Assembly (NCBI GenBank): GCA_037200965.1 | Contig: JBBCGK010000001.1 | Span: forward strand, 433,992-497,991 | Length of the DNA: 64,000 nucleotides | Source of the DNA: a bacterium | GTDB lineage: Bacteria; Patescibacteriota; Minisyncoccia; Phycocordibacterales; Phycocordibacteraceae | Reading direction: 5' to 3' | Shown here: piece after piece, positions 38,559 through 59,094 of the stretch | How the letters are laid out: every line of letters starts with the position of its first letter | Position numbering within the stretch: position 1 is the first letter of the stretch | Position numbers and translations under genes: made by a program | Notes under the pieces: generated by a model | Database searches by the model: none | Told to the model about the DNA's origin: nothing | Seen by the model: the letters and a program-made list of their open reading frames with translations, nothing else

Positions 38559-38594
38559 GTTGCACAACCTCCTTTTTACGAACGATCCTGCAGG
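38559..38594. repeat. Array repeat R1 (36 nt, perfect)
   Basis: Exact sequence match. Confidence 0.95.
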
Positions 38595-38603
38595 TTAAAA
38601 GCC

Positions 38604-38912
38604 GTGACTGATTTTCATCGAAAGCACGGCTACGACGTGGGGACCGGGAACATGGCGGTCATGTCGCTCAGAATTGGACTACTCATAGAAGAACTGGGTG
38701 AACTCCACGCCGTGGTTTCAAAGGGTGTTGGCGACATTTCAGAGGAACACGCAGACCTCTTGTATCTACTTCTTGGAAACTGCGTCACGCTTGGTATTGA
38801 TATAGAAACTGCTTTCTTTGCAAAACATGCCATTAACATGCGGAGGGAAGCCAAGGTAGTGAGGGGGAACCGCCGTGTATCGGATTGGTCCCATGAAAAA
38901 TCTCAGGAATGA
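38604..38912 (+). CDS. MazG-like nucleoside triphosphate pyrophosphohydrolase (MazZ-like)
   Basis: ...LIEELGELHAVVSKGVGDISEEHADLLYLLLGNCVTLGID... is the MazG EExxE/D helix pattern. ~100 aa; 4-nt overlap with the downstream PurA-like gene. Confidence 0.55.
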   Translation: MTDFHRKHGYDVGTGNMAVMSLRIGLLIEELGELHAVVSKGVGDISEEHADLLYLLLGNCVTLGIDIETAFFAKHAINMRREAKVVRGNRRVSDWSHEKSQE

Positions 38913-39940
38913 AAGCTACAGTCATCATCGGTGCGCAGTATGGCAGCGAAGGAAAAGGTAAGATTGCAGCTTATCTTTCAGATGAGTTCGCTCGTGCAGT
39001 TCGAACTGGCGGGCCAAACTCGGGGCATACCGTCGAGCGCAATGGCACGTTCTATCAAGTTCGAGCGGTCCCTAGTGCCTTCGTGAACCAACAATGTCGC
39101 CTCGCGATTGGTGCCGGGGCCATAATAAACACTGCCGTACTATTAGGAGAATTAACGGCATGTGGTATTGTCGAGGGGCGTTTGATAGTTGACCCTCAGG
39201 CTGTCATAATTGATGAAGAATATCAAAATTCGGAACTAGATTTAATCAGTTCGATTTCGTCCACCGGACAAGGCGTTGGTGCAGCAATCGCAGCTAAGGT
39301 CTTACGTCGGAAAGTAACTCTCGCAAGAGACGTGCCCGAGTTGCGGCCACTGCTTGCCGATGTTGCTGGCACGATCAATTCCGAACTCCAACAAGGCCTA
39401 GCTGTAATGATTGAGGGGTCGCAAGGATTTTTCTTGAGTTTGCATCATGGTTACTATCCGTTTGTAACAGGCAGGGAAACGACCGCAAGTTCATTTTGCG
39501 CCGAAGTAGGAATCGGTCCCAAAGATGTGGGTCAAGTGATTGGAGTTCTCCGCACCCACCCGATTAGAGTTGGCGGCCCTTCGGGACCTCTTCAAGACGA
39601 AATCGATTGGCAGACCGTCACCGCCGAGTCGGGCTACCCAACACCGCTGTTAGAGATAACTACCGTTACCAAACGAATTCGACGCGTCGGGAGGTTCTCA
39701 ATGGCCGAAGCTAAACGATCTTTGATGATCAATTCGGCGACCCAAATTGCTTTAAACTTCGTCGACTACTTGGACCATGCAAACTTTGGACTTAGAAGCT
39801 ACACCGCACTGACTGCTTCAACAAAAAAATTCATCGACGCACTAGAGACACAAACGGGAGTTCCCGTTTCGCTGGTGGGCACGGGGCCCCGTAACAGCGA
39901 TATGATAGACTTACGACGCGAAAAGAACCTCCCCCATTAG
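38909..39940 (+). CDS. Short adenylosuccinate-synthetase-family protein with GSEGKGK P-loop (PurZ-like, archaeal/phage type)
   Basis: GAQYGSEGKGKI (Ser where PurA has Asp13), GGPNSGHT, EGSQGFFLSLHHGYYPFVT, RVGGPSGP, TVTKRIRRVGRF, TGPRNSD. 343 aa, lacking the long bacterial PurA insertions. Confidence 0.65.
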   Translation: MKATVIIGAQYGSEGKGKIAAYLSDEFARAVRTGGPNSGHTVERNGTFYQVRAVPSAFVNQQCRLAIGAGAIINTAVLLGELTACGIVEGRLIVDPQAVIIDEEYQNSELDLISSISSTGQGVGAAIAAKVLRRKVTLARDVPELRPLLADVAGTINSELQQGLAVMIEGSQGFFLSLHHGYYPFVTGRETTASSFCAEVGIGPKDVGQVIGVLRTHPIRVGGPSGPLQDEIDWQTVTAESGYPTPLLEITTVTKRIRRVGRFSMAEAKRSLMINSATQIALNFVDYLDHANFGLRSYTALTASTKKFIDALETQTGVPVSLVGTGPRNSDMIDLRREKNLPH

Positions 39941-39948
39941 ATACCAGC

Positions 39949-40701
39949 ATGAAAAACCAATACTTTGGCGACTTGAGCGACTATAAGAAGTACGGTTTGC
40001 TGCGCACACTTTCGATTGAGGGTGAGTGCTCGCTCACTGTGTGTTGGATGCTGACGCGAGATGATCAAAGTACCGACGGGCGGCATACAACTTATTTGGC
40101 GGACGTAAGAGAATGGCGCAACCATGAGCCGTTGGTATTTGATCTACTCGCGGACGCAGTCTTCAAAAATTCCCGTAATCTCGAAATAGTTGAAAAGTCC
40201 GGACTAATACCGAACTCAAACTACTTTCGTGAGGAAATCGGCGATGCTCCCTCCCAACGGGAAGCTTTTTTTGCCCGATTGGCAGATGAAGCCCGCAATT
40301 CTGATATTGTGTTCTTGGACCCCGACAACGGCCTTGAAGTGAAGTCAGTCCCCTATGGCTCCAAGGGAGCACATAAGTACATTTATCGGTCTGAAATCGA
40401 AAAGTTATCTCGGAATGGACTTTCAATCTTGCTGTATCAACATTTTGGTCGGAAAGAACGGTCTGAGTTTATCCGAGCTATTGCATTGAAACTCATCGAT
40501 TGGCTGAATGTGGAGGAAGTATTTTCACTTCGGACGACGCATACCGTATTTTTTCTTGTGCCGAAAGCTGCCCACAGGTCGCGAATAGATCGATCCCTCC
40601 AGGCAGTAAATAGACAATGGGGAGATAAGATCTTTATCGAGATACACTCTAAGGAGTCTGTATCAACGGTTACAACGAAAAATCAGTTAGACCTACTCTA
40701 A
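39949..40701 (+). CDS. Hypothetical protein (250 aa) completing the MazG-PurZ-like cassette
   Basis: Clean ORF 8 nt after the PurZ-like stop; lower GC; no HD motif (so not obviously DatZ); unknown function. Confidence 0.45.
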   Translation: MKNQYFGDLSDYKKYGLLRTLSIEGECSLTVCWMLTRDDQSTDGRHTTYLADVREWRNHEPLVFDLLADAVFKNSRNLEIVEKSGLIPNSNYFREEIGDAPSQREAFFARLADEARNSDIVFLDPDNGLEVKSVPYGSKGAHKYIYRSEIEKLSRNGLSILLYQHFGRKERSEFIRAIALKLIDWLNVEEVFSLRTTHTVFFLVPKAAHRSRIDRSLQAVNRQWGDKIFIEIHSKESVSTVTTKNQLDLL

Positions 40702-40774
40702 GTAAGTGAGCAACATGGATATTGGAAAGGAGCCTGACTTCGCCTCGGATGCCTACTTTGATAATCCGCAACAA

Positions 40775-40810
40775 GTTGCACAACCTCCTTTTTACGAACG
40801 ATCCTGCAGG
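40775..40810. repeat. Array repeat R2 (36 nt, perfect)
   Basis: Exact sequence match. Confidence 0.95.
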
Positions 40811-41427
40811 ACGATATCCACAAATCACTGCTGCGCAGCGCGGGCCTCGCGCATCTCTCGGCGGATGAGATTGGGGACTTGAGGGACTTGGCAGCGCATG
40901 AGCTACGGAATGAGACCGCGGACCGCGGTGGTCTCATGGCGGGATTGCGACTGCGCCTGCAACAATGCGACACACGGCTATCACGCCTTACAGACGCGCT
41001 CCTCGACCACCTCATCGAAAAGCAGGAATACGAAGCCAAGAAGGCCGCGCTCCTGGGCGAGCGGCGCGAACTGCTAGACAAACTGGAAAGCCCGGAGGCT
41101 TCGCGTCAACCCGCCGACGGCGTGCTGCAAGCATTGGAACTGCCAGATGTCGTGGAAACACGCTACGAAATGGCTTTGCCGGACCAACGGCGCCGCATTG
41201 CGTCTGCAATCGCTTGGAACCTAACTGGTAGCGGAAAAGAGGCCGTACCTGAGCTGAAATCTCCGTACCGGGAGATCGTACAGTGGCGTCTTTCCAATCC
41301 GGTGCGCCGTAACGGGGAGCGATCGGAACCTGACATAAAGCTGCTATACGAAGCGCTCAAAGAAGTCTGCCGGCGAGAAGACAAGCCGCCGCAACGTCCC
41401 CAACGTCCTGATGTCTCCGGCATATAA
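40811..41427 (+). pseudogene. 5'-truncated ORF beginning inside repeat R2 (C-terminal ~200 aa of a larger protein; coiled-coil, possibly relaxase/recombinase-associated)
   Basis: The reading frame is open from within R2 (…CTTSFLRTILQDDIHKSLLRSAGLAHL…) with no start context. Ends overlapping the T4CP-like gene. Confidence 0.35.
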
Positions 41428-42724
41428 GGCGACATACTTTTTCGAGAATTGTCGCGCCTTATGCCGCGTGAATGTCAGGCAGATGCTGTTCTGCATGGAT
41501 GCGAGCATCAGCTACTTCGCCCGCACCAACTTCCGCAACCGAAACCAGCTCTTCGGTGTGAGGCAAGCCGACCGTCTTTCGCACCTGTACGTCATCGGCA
41601 AGACTGGCACGGGCAAGTCCACCCTCCTTGAAACCCTCGCCCGGCAAGACCTTCGGGCCGGGCGCGGCTTCGCCCTCATAGACCCGCACGGCGATCTCGT
41701 GGAACGGATCGCGAGGGACGCGCCGGAAGCCGTCTATCTGAACGCCCCCGATCCCTCCCAGCCCTTCGGCTATAATCCGCTCCGGAGGGTCAGGGACGAC
41801 AAGATACCGCTTGCCGTCTCGGGCTTCCTCGAAACCCTCAAGAAGCTCTGGCCCGACGCGTGGGGCGTGCGCATGGAGCACGTCCTTAGGAATACGCTGT
41901 ATGCGCTATTCGAGCAGGAGGATGCGCGGCTTCCCGATATCCTCCGCCTCTATGCCGACGAGACATACCGGAAGGCGCTCGCCAAGGGGATTAGGAACGA
42001 TACCGTCCGCCGCTTCTGGCTCCATGAGTTCGAGCACTTCCACTTTCGCCAGAGGGCGGACGCCGTGGCTCCGATACAAAACAAGATCGGGGCGCTCCTT
42101 GCCGACCCCACGCTCTATCGCATCCTCGTCGAGCCAAAGGAGGATATCCGCTTCCGTGCCCTCATGGACGGCGGCGGGGTTCTTCTGGTCAATCTCTCGA
42201 AGGGCAAACTTGGCGAGGACAGCTCGCACATCCTCGGCGCGCTCATCGTCTCGACCCTGGGCCTTGCTGCCTTTAGTCGGGCCGACAGTCCCCCAACCTC
42301 CCGCCGCCCTTTCTTCGTCTATATCGACGAATTCCAGTCCTTCACGACCCTTATGCTCGCCGACATGATGTCGGAGCTGCGGAAGTACGGCGTGGGCCTT
42401 ACCTTGGCGCACCAATATATGCACCAGCTTGAACCCGAGATACGGCATGCGGTTCTGGGGAACGCTGGGACGCTCATATCATTCCGTGTTGGCCCCGAGG
42501 ATGCGTCAATCCTGGCGAAGGAGTTTCAGCCGACGTTTGACACACACGATCTCCTGAACCTGCCTAACCACCATATCTATCTGAAGCTGATGATTGATGG
42601 GGTGCCGGGCGGGGCGTTTAGTGCAAATACAGTCGATCATTCGACGCGGGGAGAGACAAAGCTCGCACCGCTACGAAGGACTTCAGACTTGAATGCGGGC
42701 GAAAGCGCGTCTGACTATGTGTGA
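41411..42724 (+). CDS. FtsK/HerA-superfamily ATPase resembling type IV secretion coupling protein (TraD/TraG/VirD4-like, no TM domain)
   Basis: Walker A YVIGKTGTGKSTLLETL; Walker B FFVYIDEFQSF; C-terminal LAHQYMHQL similar to the T4CP QS..QL motif. Confidence 0.55.
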   Translation: MSPAYKATYFFENCRALCRVNVRQMLFCMDASISYFARTNFRNRNQLFGVRQADRLSHLYVIGKTGTGKSTLLETLARQDLRAGRGFALIDPHGDLVERIARDAPEAVYLNAPDPSQPFGYNPLRRVRDDKIPLAVSGFLETLKKLWPDAWGVRMEHVLRNTLYALFEQEDARLPDILRLYADETYRKALAKGIRNDTVRRFWLHEFEHFHFRQRADAVAPIQNKIGALLADPTLYRILVEPKEDIRFRALMDGGGVLLVNLSKGKLGEDSSHILGALIVSTLGLAAFSRADSPPTSRRPFFVYIDEFQSFTTLMLADMMSELRKYGVGLTLAHQYMHQLEPEIRHAVLGNAGTLISFRVGPEDASILAKEFQPTFDTHDLLNLPNHHIYLKLMIDGVPGGAFSANTVDHSTRGETKLAPLRRTSDLNAGESASDYV

Positions 42725-42859
42725 GCGGGATCACGTTTTTTTGCAGATGGCACGCCCGCGTGGGCTGTTTTGGTAATTGCCATAGCGTCTTGGCAACAAC
42801 TGGGCGTCAGTACCTGGCTTCCCTCACAGGTTGAATATATTACAGTATAGCTCAACCAT

Positions 42860-43864
42860 ATGTTGAGTCGCCGCATGCCCGGTATTACCGAATTACTTTT
42901 GAAAATCGCGCCCAAGATCGGCGCAAAAGTGCTGATCGAGCCTGAGTGGGGCTACGTCGGGCAAATCGCCTTCCGAAGCGGTCGCAAGCGGTACTTCCGG
43001 TTCTCCAGCGTTGACGTGAATACGCTGGGCGCATCGGAAGTCGCGAAGGACAAAGATTTTGCGAACTTCTTCATGAAGCACATGGGTTATCCCATCGTGA
43101 AAGGAAAAACGTTCTTCCGGGACGACTGGGCAGAGACAATCCGCTCCAAGCGAAAGATCACGGCCGCCTATCGATACGCGCGACGGCTGGGATTTCCGGT
43201 GATTGTGAAGCCTAACAGCGGCAGTCAGGGGAAAGCAGTATGCTTGGCTCGCACGAAGCGTCAATTCTATCGCGGAATGCGGGCGACCTTTGAGGTGGAC
43301 AAAGTCGCGCTTGTCCAAATACCTGTTTCAGGAAAAGACTACCGCATCGTGGTCTTGGACCGAGAAATCATTTCGGCGTACTACAGGGTTCCGCTAAGCG
43401 TCGTCGGCAATGGAAAAGCTTCCGTAGCGGCGTTGCTCAAGTCGAAGCAGAAAGAGTTTCGGCGCGCCGGGCGCGACACGGCGATCAGGGCCGACGATCC
43501 GCGCATAGCGGAAAAGCTCGAGCATCAGGGACTGAGCTTCGCTTCCGTTCTCCGAAAGGATCAAAAGGTTTTTCTTTTGGATAACGCCAACCTTTCGACG
43601 GGCGGCGAATCGGAAGACGTAACGGAAAGCGTGCACAAGGAGTTCAGGAAAATCGCGGTGTCGCTTACGAGGGATATGGGACTGCGCCTGTGCGGCGTCG
43701 ATCTCATGATAGACGGGGATATCTCGGAGCCGCCCAAAACGTATTGGGTGCTTGAAGTCAATTCGGCCCCGGGGCTCGATCATTATGCGAAAAGCGGCGC
43801 GGCACAAAACAAAATCGTCGAAAAGATGTATACGACGGTGCTTAAGAGCTTGGATCGTGACTAG
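42860..43864 (+). CDS. ATP-grasp family enzyme (RimK/cyanophycin-synthetase-like ligase)
   Basis: ...GFPVIVKPNSGSQGKAV..., ...DYRIVVLDREIISAYYR..., C-terminal ...LCGVDLMIDGD...YWVLEVNSAPGL. Confidence 0.55.
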   Translation: MLSRRMPGITELLLKIAPKIGAKVLIEPEWGYVGQIAFRSGRKRYFRFSSVDVNTLGASEVAKDKDFANFFMKHMGYPIVKGKTFFRDDWAETIRSKRKITAAYRYARRLGFPVIVKPNSGSQGKAVCLARTKRQFYRGMRATFEVDKVALVQIPVSGKDYRIVVLDREIISAYYRVPLSVVGNGKASVAALLKSKQKEFRRAGRDTAIRADDPRIAEKLEHQGLSFASVLRKDQKVFLLDNANLSTGGESEDVTESVHKEFRKIAVSLTRDMGLRLCGVDLMIDGDISEPPKTYWVLEVNSAPGLDHYAKSGAAQNKIVEKMYTTVLKSLDRD

Positions 43865-43956
43865 CTCGTGTATAGTCCATACGACCGATCTTCCTGACAC
43901 CAATAGGCATCGGCCAAATCGTGATTGCTGACCAACGTTTTGCGCCGAGCGACCGC

Positions 43957-44247
43957 CTAGTCGGGATCGTAGGGATTATTGGTATCCGTGCCATTGCGCG
44001 AGGAACCAGACGGCGAACTATACGGATCGACGCGCTTGTGACCTTGCTCGCCCGTATAGGGGTTCACGTTTGGATACGTCGAGTAATTGTTATAGGGATT
44101 GCTGTCAGGCGATGAGCGATGGTGTGGCGGAACATACGTGCCGTCCTTCCGCACATAGCCTCTGACACTGACGTCCTTCGCTGCCGCCTCAGCGCCAGTG
44201 GCCAGCAGGGTCGTGAAGACCAAAAGGGCGGCAAAAATCTTGCGCAT
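43957..44247 (-). CDS. Small secreted Pro/Tyr/Asn-rich protein
   Basis: Signal peptide MRKIFAALLVFTTLLATGAEAAA; then low-complexity PYNNYSTYPNVNPY. Confidence 0.4.
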   Translation of the reverse strand: MRKIFAALLVFTTLLATGAEAAAKDVSVRGYVRKDGTYVPPHHRSSPDSNPYNNYSTYPNVNPYTGEQGHKRVDPYSSPSGSSRNGTDTNNPYDPD

Positions 44248-44357
44248 ATTAACTCCGATCAAAAATGCGGCTCGATGCTAGTTTAGTGGCTGGCGCAGGG
44301 CCAGAGGAATAATCTTCGCAAGCGTGCGTCAGGCCACGCCCTACGGTAACGCGTCGA

Positions 44358-45341
44358 TCAGTTCGCCTCGTCGAAAATCCCATTCAGGATCGCCCCAAGC
44401 CGCACCCCTGCCGCCTGCAAGCGCTCTTCCACGATGGCGGCGCGGTCTTCCTTGTAGTTGCCGTCGGGCGCGAAGACGCGAACGGCGCCACCGGTATACG
44501 TCTCGCTGTCTTCGGAATAGCGGCAGGTGGTGCCGGAGAGCGTACAGTATCCGGTGTCGGGCGCGCGGGAGACGGTGAGCGATTCGTTGGCCCATACCAT
44601 CGGATCGAGCGACGCCTTCCACGTTGCCCGCTGCTCGTCCGTGATTTCCTTTTGAAGAACATTGCCAAACGCCTCGCGCCCAGGGCCTGCTGGCTTCGTC
44701 TGCGCGATGTGGAGATCACGCATGACTTGTTCGGGAATGCAGGTGTCCCACACGGTATGGAGCGCGGTTTTGCCGTCATAGGCGCAGCCCGAGACGCCCT
44801 TCACGCCGACGCTGTTGCCGCCGCGATCATCGGCATACGAAATGTGGAGCGGCTGGTGTATGTCGCCGAGCCAGTGCCCGAGGAATTTGAGGGCCGTGCG
44901 CTTCTTGTCGGTTGAGGCATTCGGGTCTTTGAGGATGGCGATATCGGCGGGGATGGCCGTGAAAAGGCACGTCGCCGCATTCACGCACTTGGCCTCGGGG
45001 AAGCTCGTCCAATCGCGCGGCATATTGATGAAGTGCTCCGCCCTCCGGCTGCTTTGCACATCGCCCTTCTCGTCCGGCCAGGTGCAGGCCCCGTGGAAGG
45101 TTCTCGGTATCTCCTTGCCGTCAGCGTCCTTAAGCGGGGTTTCTGAGCGGATAAGCTTGTTGACCGCCTTGCGGGCCGTCGGCGTGAGCTCCTTGTATGC
45201 GATCTCGCAGACCGCCTCGTGGCCGGTGCCGCCGAAGGCGAGGGCACCGCTCGTTGTGAGACAAAGACTGACGAAGCCACCAGCTCCAAACAGCGCAAGA
45301 AGAACCCGCCGACGTCCACCCATGTACCCGCTCCCCCTCAC
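44358..45341 (-). CDS. Secreted S1/P1-family zinc-dependent nuclease
   Basis: N-terminal signal, then the ...FGGTGHEAV... (W/GH motif) and ...LKFLGHWLGDIHQPLH... zinc-ligand motifs characteristic of S1-P1 nuclease. Confidence 0.7.
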   Translation of the reverse strand: MRGSGYMGGRRRVLLALFGAGGFVSLCLTTSGALAFGGTGHEAVCEIAYKELTPTARKAVNKLIRSETPLKDADGKEIPRTFHGACTWPDEKGDVQSSRRAEHFINMPRDWTSFPEAKCVNAATCLFTAIPADIAILKDPNASTDKKRTALKFLGHWLGDIHQPLHISYADDRGGNSVGVKGVSGCAYDGKTALHTVWDTCIPEQVMRDLHIAQTKPAGPGREAFGNVLQKEITDEQRATWKASLDPMVWANESLTVSRAPDTGYCTLSGTTCRYSEDSETYTGGAVRVFAPDGNYKEDRAAIVEERLQAAGVRLGAILNGIFDEAN

Positions 45342-45453
45342 TATTCGTGCCCAGGATGCGAGGACTCGCCCTAGCCGAAGAACGGATGATGCCCGGATGA
45401 TTTCACCCGTCCAAGAGGAATGTGCGCCTTAGACTTCGTATCGGGCCGGGCCT

Positions 45454-46359
45454 ATGCTGCTTCTATTGGTGGGGTGTTTCTCAGGGGGTATTGGCATGAC
45501 TAGCGGCACGCGAGTTTTTCCGACGCGTTCGTATCGGGCATCATTTCCCATTCATGCGCTTCTTGCCGTCTTCGCGCTTCTCGTCGCGGGTGCGTATGGC
45601 CCGGCCGGTTCGGCCTTGGCCGCGACCAGCGCGGCGTCCTTCTGCCTTGACGCATGCCCCGAGGGCGCGCCGGCAAAGAACAAGACGGTCGTGCACCATG
45701 TCTATGCGCTCAGCTCGAACCCCGACACGAAATTCGCCGATTGGGTCGCGTACAAGATCTCCAAAGCGACCATCGGGTCGAACTGTTCGCGCAAGTGGGC
45801 GAAGGACCCGGACCTAGCGGCCGGCACCACGCTCAAGCCCGCCGATTACAAGGACATCAGTGCGGCGCTCCAGTCCGACCGGGGCCATCAAGCGCCCTTG
45901 GCAAGCCTATGCGGCTCGAAGTTCAATGCCGAGGCGAACTATCTCTCGAACATCACCCCACAAAAGTCCGACCTCAATCAGGGCGCATGGGTGCGGCTCG
46001 AAACCGCCGAACGCAAGCTCATTACGGGCGGCACCGCGAAGACCGTGTATACCGTCACCGGGACGCTCTACGAAAAGAAGATGCCGCCGCTTCCCAAGGC
46101 GAGCGTCAAGCACAAAGTCCCTTCGGGCTATTGGAAGATCGTCGCCGTCGAGACGGACGACGGGATCGACGCCGTGGCGTTCGTCATGCCGCAGGATACA
46201 CCCAAAGCCGCCGATTATTGCGAAACGCGCACCACCATCGGCGACGTTGAGACGCGCTCGGGCCTCAAGTTCTTCCTCGATCTCAACGAGACCGACCGCA
46301 CGCAGCTTGAGGAGAGCGAGGCGAAGACCGGCCTCTATGAGGATTTGGGCTGCGAGTAG
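45454..46359 (+). CDS. Secreted DNA/RNA non-specific endonuclease (Serratia NucA family)
   Basis: Signal-anchor, then SDRGHQAPLAS (the DRGH catalytic motif) and downstream Asn/Glu residues. Confidence 0.7.
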   Translation: MLLLLVGCFSGGIGMTSGTRVFPTRSYRASFPIHALLAVFALLVAGAYGPAGSALAATSAASFCLDACPEGAPAKNKTVVHHVYALSSNPDTKFADWVAYKISKATIGSNCSRKWAKDPDLAAGTTLKPADYKDISAALQSDRGHQAPLASLCGSKFNAEANYLSNITPQKSDLNQGAWVRLETAERKLITGGTAKTVYTVTGTLYEKKMPPLPKASVKHKVPSGYWKIVAVETDDGIDAVAFVMPQDTPKAADYCETRTTIGDVETRSGLKFFLDLNETDRTQLEESEAKTGLYEDLGCE

Positions 46360-46381
46360 CACGAGCGCGGGAAGATACGGC

Positions 46382-51743: not shown

Positions 51744-51779
51744 GTTGCACAACCTCCTTTTTACGAACGATCCTGCAGG
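51744..51779. repeat. Array repeat R3 (36 nt, perfect); truncates the SpvB-like gene
   Basis: Exact sequence match; translated in frame as CTTSFLRTILQ at the end of ORF 50108. Confidence 0.95.
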
Positions 51780-51793
51780 TTTCCGTTAATCTT

Positions 51794-53134
51794 CTAAGTC
51801 TCTTGTTGAGACGCAACACAGCCCCACGCCGCTTTTACCGAGTCATAGATAAAGCCTACCGTCAGAACCTTGGATATAACCGTCGTGGTTGGCAACGCCG
51901 TGCCTTCTGCCACGAACGACGCCCCCCAGGTAATCGCCCGGGCCGTACCGTCGTCTTTGATCCTGAAGATGAGCGTCTGGAAGTTCGTGGGTGTACCGGA
52001 GAGATTTGTCGTCATCGACGTGATCGCGGTCGCAAGAGCAGTAATCGTCACGGCGTCGCACCCATCGCTATTCACTGTAGGGGTTGCCGAAGAAACAATC
52101 GTCGTTATGCGTGGAGTATTTCTCTTATTTGCAAGAGTCTGTGTACCATTGTTAGTCACGACACTGTCAGCGTTTGTGCCTGCAACCGAGATTCTCAAAT
52201 CTCCTGTTCCAACGGTAAGCACTCCTGAGGTGTGCGTTGCAACCCAGTTACCGTTACTAATGTTCCAGGTAAAACCAGTAGCACTAAAGAGATCGGCCCA
52301 TCCAAGCGCGGTCGTCCCAAGAGCGGCAATATCATTCGTGACCGGGGAAAGAGCGGAGGAGGTAAGTTGTATCGTTCCTGTTCCGTTGATAGCCAGACCA
52401 AGCGTATTGGTTGTAGGAAGGTAGAGGCGATTACCGGTAGCAGTTGAAGAGGTAGGAGCAAAGCCAGCCGCAGTTGCCAGCGATGCCAACGTCAAAGCTC
52501 CGGCGTCGGTCAAGGTTGCATTGGTGGATGTTGCTTGTGCGCCGCGCGAAGTACCATCGGACCGAAGTATAGATTCATCTGTGGCAAAAGTGGCGGCAGC
52601 GGTGACTACATTACTCGGTATATCGCTTGTAAGAGCGACGGTACCCGTGGACGCCGGAAGGGTAATGGTGTTAGTTCCAGCGATTGCCGTAGGGACGAGG
52701 GCGATGGTACCGGAAGTTGAACCCGAGAAGGTTACACCCTGGGTACCGGAAATGATGCCAGTGGTGTCAGCAATAAGCACTGCCGAGTTCTGGATCAGCT
52801 TACCAGTGGTAGTGTCGAAGCGGGCCACGGCGTTATCAGTTGCTGAAGCCGGGCCTACAACATAGGTAGCAAGGGAAGCAGTCGTAGGAATAACATAGCC
52901 GCTTTGGAGCGCTATAGCGATCGTTCCGGAAGTAGTGATCGGTACGCCGGATACCGTAAGTCCTGTCGGTACCGTAGCGTCAACGGATGTAACCGTACCT
53001 CCTCCTCCGGGGAGGTCTATAAGAAGCCTGTGCGTCGTCGGGTCTGCATATAGACGCACAGGCGTCTTGCCGTCAGCGCTTGAAGCTGCTATCAGCGTTG
53101 GAACATCGTTCTGGTCTCGGTAAGCATCAGCCAT
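51794..53134 (-). CDS. Thr/Ser/Gly-rich beta-repeat protein resembling a phage tail fibre/adhesin
   Basis: 446 aa; N-terminus ...IAASSADGKTPVRLYADP...; low-complexity T-rich repeats (…TSGTIALVPTAIAGTNTITLPASTGTVALTS…). Confidence 0.45.
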   Translation of the reverse strand: MADAYRDQNDVPTLIAASSADGKTPVRLYADPTTHRLLIDLPGGGGTVTSVDATVPTGLTVSGVPITTSGTIAIALQSGYVIPTTASLATYVVGPASATDNAVARFDTTTGKLIQNSAVLIADTTGIISGTQGVTFSGSTSGTIALVPTAIAGTNTITLPASTGTVALTSDIPSNVVTAAATFATDESILRSDGTSRGAQATSTNATLTDAGALTLASLATAAGFAPTSSTATGNRLYLPTTNTLGLAINGTGTIQLTSSALSPVTNDIAALGTTALGWADLFSATGFTWNISNGNWVATHTSGVLTVGTGDLRISVAGTNADSVVTNNGTQTLANKRNTPRITTIVSSATPTVNSDGCDAVTITALATAITSMTTNLSGTPTNFQTLIFRIKDDGTARAITWGASFVAEGTALPTTTVISKVLTVGFIYDSVKAAWGCVASQQET

Positions 53135-53136
53135 AA

Positions 53137-53298
53137 TCAGGTACTTTGTACGAGTAATTCCCCGGCACTATTGGCGTAGAGCACCACAGGCGTCTTGCCG
53201 TCAGCGCTTGAGACAGCCATGAGTGCAGGAACAAAGTTTGCGTCCCGCAGATCGTCTACCGGCCCAAAGTCCGACCCGGTAGTGTCGTCGTCCGCCAT
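53137..53298 (-). CDS. Short N-terminal paralog fragment of the tail-fibre-like protein, starting next to repeat R4
   Basis: ...VPALMAVSSADGKTPVVLYANSAG... mirrors the N-terminus of the 51794-53134 protein (...IAASSADGKTPVRLYADP...). Confidence 0.3.
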   Translation of the reverse strand: MADDDTTGSDFGPVDDLRDANFVPALMAVSSADGKTPVVLYANSAGELLVQST

Positions 53299-53327
53299 AA
53301 GCGCATGTGTTGAAGGGTCAGCAACGA

Positions 53328-53363
53328 GTTGCACAACCTCCTTTTTACGAACGATCCTGCAGG
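53328..53363. repeat. Array repeat R4 (36 nt, perfect)
   Basis: Exact sequence match. Confidence 0.95.
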
Positions 53364-53460
53364 AGTATGAGTACTGATACCGTCCAATCTGCCATTGAAT
53401 ATGCGCGACACTCGCCGTCGTGACGACGTTGAGTTAAGTCAATGGCGATTTATGTTACTG

Positions 53461-53982
53461 TCACCGGACCGGCACGAACCCTTCGGGAAGAAACTGCGTC
53501 GGGTCCTTCCACGGTTCAATAGCAACTGCTTTGGGGTATTTGCTTATCATGTAAGCATCGGTGCAATACACCAAACTTTCGGGATCATCGTCCGAAGGCT
53601 CAAGGCCTGAAAATTCAACCATCACAGATTTCTGGTTGGTAATTTTTCCAAAGGTGTCAATGAACCGCTTGATTTTGTCAAACTCACGCACAAAATCGTC
53701 GGGCTCAAATAGATAGGAATACACTACTACTGTATTCTCGCCGACGATCCGTTCGGAACCGTCCTCATTTTTCACGCGGAAACGCCCAGCGGCGAGCGGC
53801 AATTGGGTTACACCGCCATTGATCCGCACCATAATTTCCATGGCGCTATCGACCCATTTGTCAAAATTTTCAACAGGCTTCTGATCGCGATCTTGGTTAG
53901 GCAAATAAACTGCAAACCGTTGTACCGATTCAGATGTATCGGCACCTAGCGCGGTCTTGAGGTCAAAATCTACGAGCGCCAT
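53461..53982 (-). CDS. Hypothetical protein (173 aa), low-GC
   Basis: Clean ORF; no domain recognised. Confidence 0.45.
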   Translation of the reverse strand: MALVDFDLKTALGADTSESVQRFAVYLPNQDRDQKPVENFDKWVDSAMEIMVRINGGVTQLPLAAGRFRVKNEDGSERIVGENTVVVYSYLFEPDDFVREFDKIKRFIDTFGKITNQKSVMVEFSGLEPSDDDPESLVYCTDAYMISKYPKAVAIEPWKDPTQFLPEGFVPVR

Positions 53983-54068
53983 GATCGCTTCCTATTAGCC
54001 ATCAATGAAAAGGCCCCATAGCCGGGGCCTTAAAGTAGGCAAAATGCCAAATTGCAACGCTGATGCCG

Positions 54069-54725
54069 CTACCGCGGTCTTGAAGGTCTCCGAATTCCGA
54101 GCACCGTTTTAGGGTCCCGCTTGATCTTTAGAAACCGTCCAAATCCCGAACGAGCGTCTTCAGGTTTCTCCGCTTGTTGGGAAGCTGAACGAATCGCTGT
54201 CACTATCTCGTTAGCAGCTTCTGATATGGGCGGCAAATTTTGCCGGTTATAGTCGCCTGGCGGGATTCCCGCGTGCTTCTTTTTCATATGATTTTCTCCT
54301 GTTTCTTCACAGGGTTGCGACCCATCGGTCTCAGCCCCGTGTTGATCGGGAGAAAGCCCTTCAAGAATCGGGCCGCGTACGTCGGTTTCCCAGGTTAAGG
54401 CTTCGACGCGAATATCCTGGCCACGGTCCGTCCTTATGCTTTCGCGATGGGGACCATACCCACATAGTACCACAGCGGCATGCGTAGTCGCGCCCGAAAT
54501 CTCGTGGACTATATCCGCAGCAGCGCCAATACCAGCGCCCGTTACTATCAAGTCATAGACCATCAAGATGCGATCACCGGAAAGCGGTTTGTCTGCCGTT
54601 ATTGCTACGCCCTTCGCCCAACGCGTCTCGCGATAGATGCAGGCGGGCAATCCGGTTTCGGCGACGAGGGACGAGAGCATCGAAATCGCGCCGACCGGCC
54701 CCATCTCTTTTTCGATAAAGCACAA
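54069..54725 (-). CDS. Phosphoribosyltransferase (type I PRTase) domain protein
   Basis: ILMVYDLIVTGAGIGAAADIV is the PRPP-binding motif (VLLVDDVLTTGGT-like). Starts 13 nt from repeat R5. Confidence 0.55.
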   Translation of the reverse strand: MCFIEKEMGPVGAISMLSSLVAETGLPACIYRETRWAKGVAITADKPLSGDRILMVYDLIVTGAGIGAAADIVHEISGATTHAAVVLCGYGPHRESIRTDRGQDIRVEALTWETDVRGPILEGLSPDQHGAETDGSQPCEETGENHMKKKHAGIPPGDYNRQNLPPISEAANEIVTAIRSASQQAEKPEDARSGFGRFLKIKRDPKTVLGIRRPSRPR

Positions 54726-54738
54726 TCGCGTAATGCCG

Positions 54739-54774
54739 GTTGCACAACCTCCTTTTTACGAACGATCCTGCAGG
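54739..54774. repeat. Array repeat R5 (36 nt, perfect); truncates the patatin-like gene
   Basis: Exact sequence match; read through as SCRIVRKKEVVQ by the minus-strand ORF. Confidence 0.95.
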
Positions 54775-55372
54775 AAACCATGAGAGAACCCGAGTTGATC
54801 TCGGTGGCCACGATCTTCAAAGGCGACAACTCGTTAAATTCCTCATAGTTCAGGTCAGCGAACCGAATTCGATCAGGCACTCCATCGTGATCACGACCAT
54901 TTGCGGCATATAATTCCCGCATACGTTCTCGAAGAACTGTGTTGATGAATTCACGAATGGGCGTTGTGGTGAAAAAGCCTAAGTGCCGCCATATGCGCAG
55001 CATTCCAAACGTAACTAGGGGAGCTGTTAAAAAAGACAATAATACACCCCCCAACGCCGTAGCGGACAATGCCCATCGAAGTCCCTGGCGGAGGCGAACA
55101 AATCTACGCCAATCATCAGCCCCCAATAACGTTACGGGGGTCAAGTTATGTAGGCTGAGAATATTTTGATCCCTAATGTCGGGATTCATCAAAGTCGAAG
55201 CACTGTATCCCGCCGCGACTAGCGTTGCCACGATCGCGCCAGCTGACGCCCCGGCTACACCTACGAAGGCGAGCCCATTCTTCGCGGCACCCTCCAAAGC
55301 ACCAATATGCGCTATGCCCTTAGCACCGCCACCTTCGAATATGCCAAAGGCTGGCCTCTTAGCGTCCATCAC
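54775..55372 (-). pseudogene. Patatin-like phospholipase, 3'-truncated by repeat R5
   Basis: GIFEGGGAKGIAHIGAL (oxyanion-hole GGGxxG) and GASAGAIVA (GxSxG nucleophile). The ORF is read through R5 before the catalytic Asp (DGG) region is reached. Confidence 0.6.
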
Positions 55373-55505
55373 TGTATGTATCCTTTCGCAAATCAGGTCG
55401 GGGCCTGCACAAACGACAGAACATCGGACAGGCTGGTGAAATAATGAGATACCAGCCTTCGCACATTGCTGTTCCGCATACAGATACAGCAGTTGCTAGT
55501 TCAAA

Positions 55506-57077
55506 TCAGTTCAGTTGCTCCCGCACCAACGAAAGATCGTTGAACAACGTTCTCGTAAGATTCGGGATTTTTTCCAGTTTGTCTGCTTGTATTAACTTCG
55601 CCATAAAACGAATGCTTCCCTCCACTCGCTCGTCATAGAATATTTCGTGCAGAAACTTCCGCCCCTGCCGCAAATCCGTAGCATCAAACAGAAATTCCAG
55701 CTTGGCTTCGTTATCGACCATAGCAACTGCACGCCAAAAGAATCGAGGAAAATTCGCTGTCAGGAGGCTCTTGCGGACTATCTTGCTTAGGGAGGAGCGC
55801 GAAACAATCTCGCGTTTCAGATCGCTTGGGCCATTCAAAAATATGTCCCACTCGAAACGAGCCATATCACTATTGCTCGATAATTTTTTAAGCATCTCTA
55901 AAATATGATCAAATGCCAGGATAGCATCGTACACGTCGTCAAATCGGACGCGAATTTTGCTATAGAGCGGCACGAGACACAAATCCGCGCGAGCACGGGT
56001 TATCTTCGTCCCACGCTTTCGAGACCAAGTTGTCGTTATGATGTTAGATGGGCCGCTCAGCTTGATCTCAGAGTATGGGCCGATGCCGTCGTCATGCGCA
56101 TACAGTTTGGTTATGCGCGTCGCCCGTAGAAGAAAACCCGTGCGAGGTTCGGGTACTATGGGACCAGTTGTGGGCCCAAGGCCGCTGAGTGCGACCGCGT
56201 GAAATGCTCGTTTGCTTTTCTTGGAGCGTTCTAAGTTGAAGTCAAAACTCAGAATGATCGGAATATTGCCCCTCAAGAATGCATTTGCTGCGGCTTGGAT
56301 ATTGGCTCGCTCGGGCGTCATAAACAAATCCGCTTCGAGACCGACATTGCGCAAAACGCCAGCCATTTGATCGATATCCAAGCCGTCGTTCGGGAGAGCT
56401 AGGCCAGCTGTTGGCAGCGAAGCAAACGCTCGTTTGGTTATTTCAATAGGTGATAAGATTGGATTGTCATACAAATTCGCCGTGCCATGCAGTGTAGTCC
56501 ACAGAGCGCTGGTAGCGCATGCGCCAACCTCTCGGTCTTGTTCTTGAAAAGGCAGCGCACGTACAGGCAGATCTATGCCGAAAAGATTTGGTACATATCC
56601 GCGCTCAGTGAGGAAGCGACTCGATGGATTACTCCCAACCGGCGCCAAACACGTTCGCCCAATGATGGTTTCGGGAAGAGGTTTGACAACTACAAAGCCG
56701 TGATATCCCAAGACGTCGAACCTACACTCACCGCGGCCCGAAACGAAAAGCGCTTCGACCATATCTTTATCGAACGGTTGCCGAAAAAAGTGAATTCGTG
56801 AACATTCTTTCGGATAGTTCGCGTGGCATCTCGCGTAGTATCCTGTATGATCTTCGGCGAAATGCTTGTCGATGTAGTCGCGCTCAAATACAAGAGTTTC
56901 GATTTTCGCGGCTTCACAGTAACGAGCTAGAAAAATGACCTGGGGCTTTTGTGCAATTTGCTCCAGTCTAGGTTTAAATGCTCCGGCAACAAAAAGCGCT
57001 ACCAAGTTCTCTCGATTGTACTTGAGTACTTGGTAGCGCTCGCCCATGTGATCTAACTGAATATCCGCGTACGTCAC
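55506..57077 (-). CDS. Hypothetical protein (523 aa) with a possible Cys-His peptidase-like motif
   Basis: Large clean ORF in array segment E; GACATSALWTTLHG is the only suggestive motif. Confidence 0.45.
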   Translation of the reverse strand: MTYADIQLDHMGERYQVLKYNRENLVALFVAGAFKPRLEQIAQKPQVIFLARYCEAAKIETLVFERDYIDKHFAEDHTGYYARCHANYPKECSRIHFFRQPFDKDMVEALFVSGRGECRFDVLGYHGFVVVKPLPETIIGRTCLAPVGSNPSSRFLTERGYVPNLFGIDLPVRALPFQEQDREVGACATSALWTTLHGTANLYDNPILSPIEITKRAFASLPTAGLALPNDGLDIDQMAGVLRNVGLEADLFMTPERANIQAAANAFLRGNIPIILSFDFNLERSKKSKRAFHAVALSGLGPTTGPIVPEPRTGFLLRATRITKLYAHDDGIGPYSEIKLSGPSNIITTTWSRKRGTKITRARADLCLVPLYSKIRVRFDDVYDAILAFDHILEMLKKLSSNSDMARFEWDIFLNGPSDLKREIVSRSSLSKIVRKSLLTANFPRFFWRAVAMVDNEAKLEFLFDATDLRQGRKFLHEIFYDERVEGSIRFMAKLIQADKLEKIPNLTRTLFNDLSLVREQLN

Positions 57078-57538
57078 ACTGTGAACGGGATACGCCGACG
57101 GTCAGGAGAAATCTGGTTGGCTTGTTCTCGACTTTCAATTGCCTTGAGCATTGGCGAAAGACGCTTAGCGACTTGCGCAGTAAGATCAGTTCTGGAGGCC
57201 GTCGCCTTGGACTTGGGCCGTGCAGAACTCTTCGTCTTTTTGTGACGCATAGCGCAACCTCCAATTTCGGTGAGCAGGATGTTGCCCTCAGTTCCAGCCC
57301 GGCGGGTATAAACTCCAACACGGGGATCAAAATCAAGCTCATGGACTTGACTTCCTGGAACGGGGCCGCCTAGGGCTCCCCTGTAACGAATCAGCCCTGT
57401 TCTTAACGTACCACGAGCGCCTTCGTATCCCCAATATTTTGTATGTGGATAATCCACCAACACAAGTTCTTTGAATGGTGAGGCTGGCCGTTGCCTTTCC
57501 TCAGTGGCGTCGCCGTCCGTTGACCCAATCGCCTGCAT
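57074..57538 (-). CDS. Hypothetical protein (154 aa)
   Basis: 4-nt overlap with the downstream 523-aa gene; no domain. Confidence 0.3.
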   Translation of the reverse strand: MQAIGSTDGDATEERQRPASPFKELVLVDYPHTKYWGYEGARGTLRTGLIRYRGALGGPVPGSQVHELDFDPRVGVYTRRAGTEGNILLTEIGGCAMRHKKTKSSARPKSKATASRTDLTAQVAKRLSPMLKAIESREQANQISPDRRRIPFTV

Positions 57539-57677
57539 AACAATTTAATGCCTTCCTTCTGGCAGCAGACCACTAGGAGCGGCAGACGGCCGTTCATTAT
57601 CAGCGTGGATCATTGGCTGGACCGAGCCCCAATCGGTGACTGATTCGTACGGCTAAAGACCGCTCGGGTCAACTAAG

Positions 57678-57713
57678 GTTGCACAACCTCCTTTTTACGA
57701 ACGATCCTGCAGG
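57678..57713. repeat. Array repeat R6 (36 nt, perfect), cas-proximal
   Basis: Exact sequence match; 32 nt from the cas2 stop codon. Confidence 0.95.
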
Positions 57714-57745
57714 AGTCCGTGTATATTGAGCGGTAACGCGAATTA

Positions 57746-58042
57746 CTAGACAATCTCAAAGGACTTGATCTTATAATACTCCCCGATAACGGCATCGGCA
57801 GTTGAATTAAGTGCGCATGATTTGCAGGAAGAAAATAGATGCAGCCGATCCCGTTTTCCCGTGAATAGCGATCGCATCTTCATTTCAAATTCCCGGCGCT
57901 CCTTAAAGGAAAGGCGTCCGACGTAGAGAGTCTGTTGAAGTGCGGATAAACCATAGTCCTTTGATAACTTTTCCGCGCGGATCTGGCGCTGCCGATTGGC
58001 GGTTCTCCAGGCGACTATTGCAAGGAAGCATGGATCATTCAT
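57746..58042 (-). CDS. cas2: CRISPR-associated endoribonuclease Cas2 (beta1 Asp apparently replaced: LAIVAW)
   Basis: 98 aa; ...RQRQIRAEKLSKDYGLSALQQTLYVGRL... fits the Cas2 alpha1/beta3 pattern (…YGxRxQxSVFxC…); 4-nt overlap with cas1; 32 nt from R6. Confidence 0.55.
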   Translation of the reverse strand: MNDPCFLAIVAWRTANRQRQIRAEKLSKDYGLSALQQTLYVGRLSFKERREFEMKMRSLFTGKRDRLHLFSSCKSCALNSTADAVIGEYYKIKSFEIV

Positions 58043-59094
58043 GGTGCCGCATATTCAAACGGCACATATAAGGGCGCTTTTTCAAGAAATACCCGGCTTA
58101 AGAGCTCGCTCTGTTCCGTAATGGTATTGCGGAGCGTACGGCGTTTCCCGTGATGGAGGACTTTCGACTCGAGGCGCTTAAGCACCGCCTCAACCACCTT
58201 GCTCTTTCCTTGCGCAGAAAGCCGATATTCGATCTTGCTTACCTGCTCGAAATCGCCGCGCTTGCCAAGTTCCTGAGAAATGAAGAGCGGCATGACTGCA
58301 GCGTCGACGACGGGGACCCGAAACTCTTCGACCAGATCGAGGACGAGCGCGGGCTTGCCGTAACGCTCGGAATGATAAAGTCCGAGATACGGGTCGAGAC
58401 CGATATAAAGGCACGCCCGCTCGACTTCGTTATAGAGGATGCCGTATCCGTAATTAAGAGCGCTGTTGAACTTGTCCCTGCCTTGCGGTATCCGGCCCGG
58501 GAACTTAAAAAGCGATTTCATGCCTTGCCAATAGCGCTCTGCAATGGATCCTTCAAGGCCAAGCAGTTCCTCGTTCACCCGGTTGCTCGGAAGCAGCTTC
58601 GCTATCGACTCAAAAACCGCCTCCGCCTGCATCCGCTCCTTCGCATTCTCCGCACCGTATCGGTCGGCAAGATGGCGCATAAAGCGGATTTGGTTGCGGC
58701 ACTTACCGACAACGAAGGTACGCGCAAGTTCGAAGGATTTAGCCGGATCGGAGGAAGTCGTAAGCTGTGCGCGGCGCAATGTCGCGAGCCCCTTCGGGTC
58801 GCTTGAGAAAATGCGCCCGACGGGTTTCCCAAATGCGCCGAGATAGACGATATCGACTTCGTGCTCGAGCGCGAGTTGCACCGCATGCATGGAAATGGAG
58901 GACGGACGGAGTATGACGATCTTAGCAAGCCGCCGGACCGGATACTCCTTCTTAACCCGGAGAAGCTTTACCGCAGTTCCCCGCTTGCGACGCCTGCCAC
59001 CCCCAAGCGGCTTTCGCGGAACCGGGAGACTGACCGTAATACGCTCGCCCGTCGCGCCGATGAAGCTGCCATAGGTATCTATCAGCAAATCCAT
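58039..59094 (-). CDS. cas1: CRISPR-associated integrase Cas1
   Basis: NSALNYGYGILYNEVERACLYIGLDPYLGLYHSERYGKPALVLDLVEEFRVPVVDAAV is the hallmark Cas1 catalytic-region signature; 351 aa. Confidence 0.85.
   Translation of the reverse strand: MDLLIDTYGSFIGATGERITVSLPVPRKPLGGGRRRKRGTAVKLLRVKKEYPVRRLAKIVILRPSSISMHAVQLALEHEVDIVYLGAFGKPVGRIFSSDPKGLATLRRAQLTTSSDPAKSFELARTFVVGKCRNQIRFMRHLADRYGAENAKERMQAEAVFESIAKLLPSNRVNEELLGLEGSIAERYWQGMKSLFKFPGRIPQGRDKFNSALNYGYGILYNEVERACLYIGLDPYLGLYHSERYGKPALVLDLVEEFRVPVVDAAVMPLFISQELGKRGDFEQVSKIEYRLSAQGKSKVVEAVLKRLESKVLHHGKRRTLRNTITEQSELLSRVFLEKAPLYVPFEYAAP

Follow-up and report, generated by a model that had tools for sequence, protein, structure and literature searches.

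A stand-alone Cas1-Cas2 module of Patescibacteria that probably inserts kilobase-long foreign DNA between CRISPR-type repeats

To our knowledge, every characterised Cas1-Cas2 complex inserts DNA fragments of about 30-40 bp, the length being set by a molecular ruler. Casposases, which are integrases of the Cas1 family, insert kilobase-long DNA and duplicate their target site. For their part, the ultra-small episymbionts from the candidate phyla radiation (CPR) mostly lack CRISPR immunity. Stand-alone adaptation modules exist and are often remnants of effector loss, with no mention of kilobase-sized inserts in the sections of the surveys consulted (PMC6452270, PMC5704561), and Cas4 has been implicated in prespacer selection and processing (PMC6519985). 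Here we describe a locus in a 64-kb stretch of contig JBBCGK010000001.1 (the window), in which cas1 and a divergent cas2 lie beside six copies of a CRISPR-type repeat separated by kilobases of DNA. A first-pass annotation had proposed that a Cas1-Cas2 module inserted kilobase-scale foreign fragments or whole gene cassettes between the repeats, in a manner closer to an integron than to immunity. The insertion of foreign DNA is borne out by recurrence of the arrangement across a clade, by an exact donor for one segment and by an empty metG-tatD site, catalysis by Cas1-Cas2 being deduced. Sequence comparison thus makes it probable that a stand-alone Cas1-Cas2 integrase inserts unprocessed, kilobase-long DNA of foreign origin at the repeat, a further copy of which is made with each insertion.

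The 36-nt repeat, GTTGCACAACCTCCTTTTTACGAACGATCCTGCAGG, was found six times on the + strand of the window, with 0 mismatches in each copy, and the positions and segment lengths given in the first-pass annotation were all correct (Table 1). No extra copy was detected in the window at up to 3 mismatches, the expectation from 100 shuffled sequences being 0. Since the flanks of the six copies differ, the repeat unit is exactly 36 nt. The five intervening segments (S1 to S5, numbered from the distal end) are all of kilobase size. As had been claimed, neither normal-length spacers nor effector genes occur anywhere in the window, and Cas4, Cas6 and effector families were not found in it either, the remainder consisting of housekeeping genes. 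No Cas effector, Cas4 or Cas6 family recurred in the flanks of 16 related loci. In the segments, PADLOC recognised no defence system, returning only a weak phospholipase match and a mads8/HerA match. The repeat showed no covarying RNA stem, only its termini being invariant, and an Rfam scan gave no CRISPR-DR match, its matches being limited to rRNA and an intron. Read on the + strand of the window, the repeat is free of stop codons in all frames. The locus is bracketed by metG and tatD, both supported by Pfam matches; the true start of tatD is probably at 38524, which yields 265 aa, the same length as in the relative L202. Every named relative of MetG belongs to the Patescibacteria/Paceibacterota, which places this genome there.

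The argument would have collapsed had the Cas1-like protein been unrelated to adaptation integrases, a point raised at the outset. The Cas1 motifs are present, and in addition to its PF01867 and TIGR00287 matches the protein aligned to the solved Cas1 7CR6 (2e-31), with the casposase 6OPM matching at E=8e-20; the nearest solved Cas1 structures were 7CR6, 4N06 and 7MI4. Its catalytic positions, E181, H241, D253 and E256, align with 7CR6 and show no substitution among 29 members of the clade. The best subtype models were those of I-D, I-G and I-C, all of them below cut-off. The window's Cas1 subgroup carries a basic Pro/Arg/Lys-rich insertion of about 20 aa, VPRKPLGGGRRRKRGTAVKLLRVKK, at residues ~24-48 (window 58951-59025), which is apparently absent from the clade members of 333-340 aa.

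The small gene that overlaps cas1 matches Cas2 poorly, and an equivalent open reading frame (ORF) was present 3' of cas1 in 23/23 clade loci aligned. When a profile of the clade protein was compared with the PDB, solved Cas2 structures accounted for five of the six matches, including the two best (7F84, 4QR0, 3EXC, 2I8E and 2IVY; best E=0.01). The match is thus weak but consistent with a Cas2 assignment. The alignment of the clade proteins also revealed an invariant CxxC near the C-terminus and an invariant Trp at the position, after strand 1, that the catalytic Asp occupies in canonical Cas2. The 4-nt overlap of the two genes and the 32 nt between the cas2 stop codon and the last repeat were as first described. 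Across the clade, the distance from cas2 stop to repeat ranged from 3 to 53 nt wherever cas2 could be delimited, and the upstream sequences of 45 distinct loci, placed side by side, shared a leader end in which GGCT directly precedes the CCTGCA of the repeat. In many loci the cas2 stop lies only ~10 nt from the repeat, so that the conserved leader overlaps the 3' end of cas2. No terminator-like site was found between cas2 and the repeat. A motif resembling the putative cas promoter of the window (Table 1) is also present upstream of cas1 in L002; a strict promoter scan did not call the window's promoter.

Arrays of this appearance might result from misassembly, either by the joining of unrelated contigs at a short repeat or by the collapse of a normal array. 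The sequence was obtained by metagenome assembly, and in related loci many contigs from short reads are broken at the repeat. The source contig JBBCBH010010897.1 (960,259 bp, GCA_037975565.1) ends at window position 46708, inside S2, so that the window runs past the contig end at 46708/46709; the genome is presumably circular. Against this, contig JAATEX010000139.1 (22 kb, GCA_015655515.1), assembled in another project than the source, is colinear with window 64000-48039 at 99.975% identity, spanning metG, cas1, cas2, S5, S4 and S3 with their repeats before it runs into S2. S4 was 100% identical, and S5 identical, in the independent assembly L120. Logan contigs built from raw reads also hold the junctions: one from SRR28211700 (L205, k=31) consists of S3 flanked at either end by 28 nt of repeat, another from SRR10968228 (k=31) holds the R1-S1 junction, and a third (L001) carries the cas2-leader-repeat junction and terminates inside R6. 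The contig end is bridged by a 6.6-kb Logan contig (L122) that is 100% identical to window 42578-49173. No ordinary short spacers were seen at the locus in assemblies built from reads, which amounts to an indirect check of the reads. Together with the kilobase spacing of repeats in other genomes described below, among them a complete chromosome, these results leave chimeric assembly, which had been named as a possible refutation, with a negligible probability.

The origin of the inserted DNA was traced for S1. This segment is 100% identical over its 2180 nt to positions 9687-11866 of a donor locus (L116) on a 4,003,360-bp contig of the same metagenome assembly (JBBCBH010010880.1), and the identity extends from the first base after R1 to the last base before R2. 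Two genes that are complete in the donor are interrupted at the breakpoints, one for a kinase/PRA-PH protein of 297 aa and one for a P450 of 402 aa. S1 contains the 3' 105 codons of the former and the first 20 codons of the latter, with a short PurA/PurZ-like synthetase gene and a 250-aa ORF between them. The element around the donor stretch encodes serine and tyrosine recombinases, TrwB-like coupling proteins, a relaxase and AlpA. The G+C content of S1 equals that of the donor stretch and is unlike that of the host genome (0.58-0.60), which indicates transfer from donor to array. No copy of the repeat was present in the 21 kb of donor sequence examined, nor was any att-like similarity detected at either breakpoint; capture of S1 thus needed neither homology nor a donor site.

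These results bear directly on the possibility that the segments are independent integrative elements or islets with their own recombinases, the 36-mer serving as att core and cas1-cas2 being a bystander. Tandem integration at one att site does yield direct repeats, a serine-recombinase remnant is present in S2, and one segment of the related locus L007 includes a tyrosine-integrase gene. However, four of the five segments (S1, S3, S4 and S5) lack a recombinase, and that of S2 is truncated at its 5' end by the repeat itself. A tandem array of such elements should show an intact recombinase in each unit and the att core in the donor; neither was found, the S1 breakpoints lying inside genes in a donor devoid of the 36-mer. 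Moreover, in a clade of 56 repeat-bearing loci, the repeat lies directly 3' of cas2, behind a conserved leader end, wherever cas2 could be delimited. We therefore regard independent elements, another of the refutations initially envisaged, as very unlikely.

The kilobase spacing is not peculiar to this genome. Since the exact 36-mer was not found in public genome, viral or metagenome contig collections, it should be noted that relatives of the locus were reached via Cas1 similarity and not via the repeat. Cas1 homologues with 50-88% identity were numerous (more than 120 clusters at ≥50% identity), the named ones being Patescibacteria. Among the loci scanned, of which 43 came from the genomes of species representatives and 66 from metagenomes, 56 had a homologous 36-37-nt repeat on the cas strand, again mostly from Patescibacteria, with the consensus CCTGCA-N-GTCGCAAAAAGGA-NN-TTGTGCAAC. 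Two or more repeat copies were present in 15/24 loci with at least 3 kb of downstream sequence, and 91/94 copies matched the consensus of their own locus perfectly. The 39 distinct inter-repeat segments measured 140-12,050 nt (median, 1473 nt), none of them being shorter than 100 nt, and no locus in the clade mixed short and long spacers. Thus, a Kaiserbacteria metagenome-assembled genome (MAG) from Microflora Danica (MFD), whose Cas1 is 85-88% identical, has segments of 1332, 1379, 1340 and 2377 nt, and a complete 876-kb MFD chromosome (OY969557.1) has eight repeats; we take the MFD MAGs to be long-read assemblies.

More distant Cas1 relatives (30-35% identity), from Methanospirillum, Methanocalculus, a Bacteroidales MAG and an Iainarchaeum MAG, are accompanied by arrays of the ordinary kind, in which a 37-nt repeat, recognisably related to the present one, recurs with a period of 72-75 nt. 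The locus of Methanospirillum stamsii, the sole one typed among these, is type III-A. The giant-insert arrays are therefore derived from a genuine CRISPR system. CRISPR arrays are known targets of insertion sequences and prophages, and it is conceivable that a once-normal array had its short spacers inflated later to kilobase size by mobile elements or islands. But in S1 the donor sequence abuts the repeats at both ends and leaves no residual spacer, the segments have no transposable-element termini and their ends cut genes, and the clade offers neither a short segment nor a mixed locus. We consider this possibility extremely improbable.

Some loci of the clade contain pieces of the module itself. 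At least three nearly identical cas1-cas2 modules are present in MAG MFD05512.bin.1.167 (L031/L033, on contig CAVYRH010000003.1; L025; and L022). In L033, one inter-repeat segment consists of the 3' 1081 nt of cas1-cas2-leader, stopping exactly at the leader-repeat junction, and is preceded by a segment of 12,050 nt; in L025, one segment of 8.3 kb between repeats encloses a complete cas1-cas2. It thus appears that the module can capture itself, or be duplicated by way of the array. In four further loci the repeat abuts a truncated cas1 comprising residues 1-250 or ~1-110 (L080, position 2230; L109, 6093; L110, 1503; L113, 1064), these being either decayed modules or captured cas1 fragments.

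The products seen in L033 and L025 resemble those of breakage or exchange, and direct repeats of 36-37 nt are able to recombine. Homologous or illegitimate recombination at the repeats, by exchange with repeat-bearing arrays on other replicons or by end joining of nicks made by Cas1, might therefore be thought to account for the arrays with no integration of long DNA. Such recombination shuffles or deletes units and cannot build one out of repeat-free donor DNA such as that of S1. In addition, the units are bounded by full, perfect repeats with no junction scars, a signature left when the two repeat ends are cut in a staggered manner and then filled in. Recombination in place of long-DNA integration is thus improbable, although less so than the other alternatives weighed so far.

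Integration at the repeat is also reflected in the divergence of strains whose cas regions are identical. An identical Cas1 (82% identical to that of the window) is encoded on contigs from four samples; two of the contigs, L005 and L006, match a third, L003, over 3.4-4.3 kb; the match stops at the last base of the repeat, past which they bear no relation to it. In total, 16 contigs broke off no more than 250 nt from the first repeat, which is what variation of the sequence beyond it within populations would produce. The chromosomal position of cas1-cas2 itself varies even among close relatives. In the closest relative by MetG (L202, 81% identity), the flanking gene order is the same and the metG stop and tatD start overlap by 4 nt, so that the window holds a 20.6-kb insertion made up of module and array. 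In a second relative, whose MetG is 77% identical, metG and tatD are separated by two small ORFs of no known family (137/101 aa and 218 aa; L203 7482-8580, L204 4257-5355), the site thus being variable in the lineage even without cas genes. The metG and tatD junctions gave no evident sign of a target-site duplication enclosing the whole module. In L003, the cas1-cas2-leader-repeat unit is flanked by a 28-nt direct repeat (9959-9986 and 11409-11436), whose downstream copy has the final 10 nt of the CRISPR repeat as its beginning; the 18 nt in common read AGGGAGTATGAGCGGGAT. This flanking repeat may be a trace of the module's own insertion.

According to the mechanism that we propose, a stand-alone adaptation module composed of cas1, a divergent cas2, a 32-nt leader and a 36-nt repeat, and lying between metG and tatD as an insertion, would act with no length limit on its inserts. 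Cas1-Cas2 would seize a long double-stranded DNA fragment, left untrimmed, by its two 3' ends, and the 3'-OH groups would attack and become joined to both ends of the leader-proximal repeat, after which gap repair would copy the repeat. Each event would thereby add one fragment and one repeat, and new fragments would enter beside the leader. The captured DNA derives from mobile elements of other bacteria in the case of S1, and S2 and S3 suggest a similar source, the kinds concerned being integrative/conjugative-like elements and phage-like DNA. The only departure from known Cas1-Cas2 chemistry would be that the fragment is neither measured nor trimmed. Such a model predicts n+1 identical, co-oriented repeats, arbitrary breakpoints in the donor, donors with neither homology nor repeat, and a broad range of sizes, and all of these were observed. 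Since Cas1 is nearest to subtype models that use Cas4 and no Cas4 lies nearby, missing trimming is a plausible contributor, though not a sufficient one.

Several observations weigh against this proposal. Catalysis by Cas1-Cas2 is deduced from gene adjacency and the repeat-duplication signature. The characterised Cas1-Cas2 complexes use a fixed ruler, and we know of none that carries out full-site integration of kilobase-long DNA in vivo. An exact donor was found for one segment only, and S1, although distal, has 0 mismatches to it, so that entry of new fragments beside the leader is a presumed feature. The window covers 64 kb of a 0.96-Mb genome, and a trans-acting effector or another recombinase could lie elsewhere. 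A single repeat was all that 9/24 loci with at least 3 kb of downstream sequence contained, so that many modules may be inactive or rarely active. Finally, the presence of self DNA, including cas1-cas2, in segments of L025 and L033 could also result from recombination between arrays.

Table 1. Coordinates of the array, the cas genes and the flanking genes in the window
Feature	Coordinates	Strand	Description
tatD	37727..38542	-	PF01026 7e-63; conserved chromosomal gene downstream of the insertion
Repeat R1	38559..38594	-	Distal copy, perfect
S1	38595..40774	.	2180 nt, G+C 0.485; fragment of an integrative/conjugative-like element of another bacterium
Repeat R2	40775..40810	-	Perfect copy
S2	40811..51743	.	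10,933 nt, G+C 0.596
Repeat R3	51744..51779	-	Perfect copy
S3	51780..53327	.	1548 nt, G+C 0.541; 446-aa protein and 65-aa fragment of a tandem paralogue truncated by R4
Repeat R4	53328..53363	-	Perfect copy
S4	53364..54738	.	1375 nt, G+C 0.516; 218-aa ORF and 173-aa ORF
Repeat R5	54739..54774	-	Perfect copy
S5	54775..57677	.	2903 nt, G+C 0.506; 154-aa and 523-aa ORFs (no known family), patatin-like gene
Repeat R6	57678..57713	-	Cas/leader-proximal copy; sequence in cas orientation CCTGCAGGATCGTTCGTAAAAAGGAGGTTGTGCAAC
Leader	57714..57745	-	32 nt, from cas2 stop to first repeat; ends in ACT, followed by CCTGCA
cas2-like	57746..58042	-	98 aa; overlaps cas1 by 4 nt; divergent; PF09827 E=0.003, below Pfam cut-off
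cas1	58039..59094	-	351 aa; PF01867 1e-63; TIGR00287 1e-65
Intergenic region upstream of cas1	59095..59149	-	55 nt; TTGACA-N17-TATATA and CTTGAC-N5-GTCAAG palindrome; putative cas promoter
metG (methionyl-tRNA synthetase)	59150..60580	-	Pfam tRNA-synt_1g 3e-91; conserved chromosomal gene upstream of the insertion

The contents of the segments showed them to be fragments, not cassettes of whole genes. S2 starts within a large serine-recombinase gene that is reduced to its 3' part (phrog_95 integrase, positions 459-549 of 651), and ends with an SpvB/FG-GAP toxin-like gene truncated by R3; between them lie genes for a TrwB/HerA-like ATPase, an ATP-grasp protein, an S1/P1 nuclease, an NS endonuclease, and helix-turn-helix, LysR and GNAT proteins. 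Its beginning (window 40812-41808) has 71% nucleotide identity to the start of the S1 donor locus, which indicates that S2 came from a related element. The 446-aa protein of S3 matched phrog_3030 (1e-22), with 379 related stretches in IMG/VR viral contigs. In S4, the 218-aa ORF is open at the leader-proximal edge, is probably truncated at its 5' end and has weak phosphoribosyltransferase-like similarity. The patatin-like gene of S5 has its 3' end cut by R5, and a 254-aa ORF continues through R5 into S4; no viral relatives of the 523-aa protein were found. For S2 to S5, exact proteins were encountered only on array-type contigs, and plasmid and phage collections gave no megablast or blastn matches.

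Recognisable genes are cut at no fewer than six of the ten segment ends in the window. Over the clade, at least 60 open codons adjoined the boundary at 76% of segment ends, compared with 87% of random genome positions. Similarly, a segment of L019 encodes 419 aa of a kinase whose full-length homologues have 613-624 aa. Genes within the segments were of mixed orientation and no common functional theme was found among the domains of the clade segments, which include methyltransferases, outer membrane protein beta-barrels, TPR, an IS200 transposase, PemK, an integrase, DNA polymerase III delta', NDK and a Cas1 fragment. The first bases past the first repeat showed no evident conservation that would suggest a protospacer adjacent motif (45 loci; one donor available).

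In the donor locus, the region 9111-13015 carries a compact cluster of the kinase/PRA-PH fusion (297 aa), the PurA/PurZ-like synthetase (343 aa), the 250-aa protein, which has no known family, and cytochrome P450, and could be a nucleotide-modifying or small-molecule pathway on an integrative/conjugative-like element. The idea that S1 represents a phage dZ (Z-genome) cluster was rejected, since the synthetase fits the short archaeal-type PurA better than PurZ (361.8 bits against the PurA model, cut-off 368). An apparent MazG in S1 was likewise discarded, being the truncated 3' end of the kinase/PRA-PH gene. A 74-nt direct repeat in S3 (53046-53119 and 53174-53247, 74% identity) corresponds to two tandem paralogous genes. 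The public annotation of the locus contains chimeric proteins that read through repeats (window 50108-52228 and 54605-55369); thus, an annotated 706-aa 'SpvB/TcaC' combines 545 aa from S2, residues encoded by R3 and ~150 aa of antisense S3.

The same mechanism could also have produced an array that is selected and functional, either as an integron-like platform for expressing captured genes or as an immune memory with long transcripts that has no effector or uses one in trans. Intact genes are present, such as the synthetase and the 250-aa ORF of S1 and several in S2; the passage from cas2 into the array is free of terminators, the sources of the window's segments are biased to mobile elements, and the clade is large and conserved. 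On the other hand, genes are interrupted at segment ends nearly as frequently as at random positions, gene orientation is mixed and gene content follows no theme, neither effector, Cas6 nor repeat RNA structure is detectable, and many loci have a single repeat. The truncated genes, mixed orientation and lack of effector and repeat structure speak against both classical interference and a platform tuned for expression. A selected, functional array is rather unlikely, though much less so than the alternatives considered above. In a wider sense, we regard it as a tentative possibility that Cas1-Cas2 of the clade is a homology-independent integrase for gene-sized DNA that the cell puts to use, as a counterpart of integrons or as a kilobase-long immune memory. 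Most likely, the array is a by-product archive of sampled foreign DNA that occasionally supplies intact genes. The description of the segments as integron-like gene cassettes therefore stood in its topology, but extended neither to cassette structure nor to a demonstrated function.

A natural clade whose arrays hold fragments of 0.14-12 kb would imply that the ruler has been lost and that site-specific, repeat-duplicating integration has been kept. If the proposal is true, the module would be a living intermediate between casposases and spacer integrases, making the transposon-to-CRISPR scenario testable. It would offer CPR episymbionts a route to take up DNA of neighbouring bacteria and conjugative elements, the donor being present in the same sample, and the arrays could record which organisms CPR bacteria contact. 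If the cell does put the integrase to use, the consequence could be integron-like acquisition of genes by these genome-reduced bacteria from the mobile elements of their hosts, or a kilobase-long immune memory free of linked effectors, and in both cases the module would represent a distinct functional class of CRISPR-derived system. An integrase able to place arbitrary kilobase-sized DNA at a defined 36-bp site, with no need of homology or donor site, is much sought, and the module would be a candidate tool for large site-specific insertions. For annotation, a warning follows: CRISPR finders miss such arrays, and gene callers produce chimeric read-through ORFs.

Elsewhere in the window, the rRNA operon (1-2093 and 14762-20235) has interrupted genes, as is common in CPR bacteria, in which introns and insertions split rRNA genes. 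The 16S gene gave two Rfam matches (1-837 and 1571-2093) with a 247-aa ORF (740-1483) between them, and the 23S gene (15891-20235) contains a group I intron (16313-16529). LAGLIDADG homing-endonuclease families were matched by two of the 24 window ORFs scanned.

No description of kilobase-sized spacers or of the present Cas1 clade was found in the open full-text literature, in agreement with the earlier statement that no described system of this organisation was known; subscription journals lay mostly outside the search, and a prior description is possible. Among described systems, the surveyed stand-alone modules share cas1-cas2 without effector genes with the present locus, which differs from them, as far as the surveyed sections describe them, in forming a clade that is large and conserved, has a repeat family of its own and carries giant inserts (PMC6452270, PMC5704561).

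The relationship to integrons is confined to topology: an integrase gene at one end, one-directional kilobase-scale units and a recurring site. There is no IntI here, and no Phage_integrase-family gene was found among the locus ORFs scanned (all those of about 150 aa or more and several shorter ones). Identical duplicated repeats take the place of the variable, hairpin-forming attC sites, and the units are random fragments with truncated genes that need no donor site, instead of complete promoterless ORFs. Casposons share with the module a Cas1-family integrase, and their target-site duplication is analogous to the duplication of the repeat. Here, however, PolB, terminal inverted repeats and shared termini are lacking, cas1 lies outside the insert, the insert ends are arbitrary, and Cas1, which is paired with Cas2, is closer to a CRISPR Cas1 (7CR6). 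With regard to adaptation in the absence of cas4, mutants of Pyrococcus furiosus reportedly acquire longer spacers that lack the adjacent motif. The missing Cas4 would fit untrimmed substrates in the same way, but the lengthening in the mutants amounts to tens of nucleotides, whereas here it reaches two orders of magnitude; the comparison is thus a lead and not an explanation.

The closest resemblance is to the canonical CRISPR adaptation module, with which the locus shares the Cas1 catalytic motifs and residues, an adjacent cas2, a short conserved leader and n+1 co-oriented, near-identical repeats within the usual range of ~23-50 nt. The conserved ends of the repeat and its AAGGA motif are as in the repeats of methanogens (Methanospirillum, L041, type III-A-associated), and one insert, S1, is traceable to foreign mobile DNA. 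The locus departs from the canonical module in its inserts, which measure 140-12,050 nt across the clade (1375-10,933 nt in the window), show no length control and hold whole and truncated genes, where canonical spacers are short and uniform (~30-40 nt, within ~25-50 nt). It also departs in its highly divergent cas2, and in that neither an effector nor machinery for CRISPR RNA processing, Cas6 included, accompanies it in the window or in the flanks of the 16 related loci, Cas4 being missing as well. The locus thus represents an adaptation module of known type, with a real chance of constituting a new functional class.

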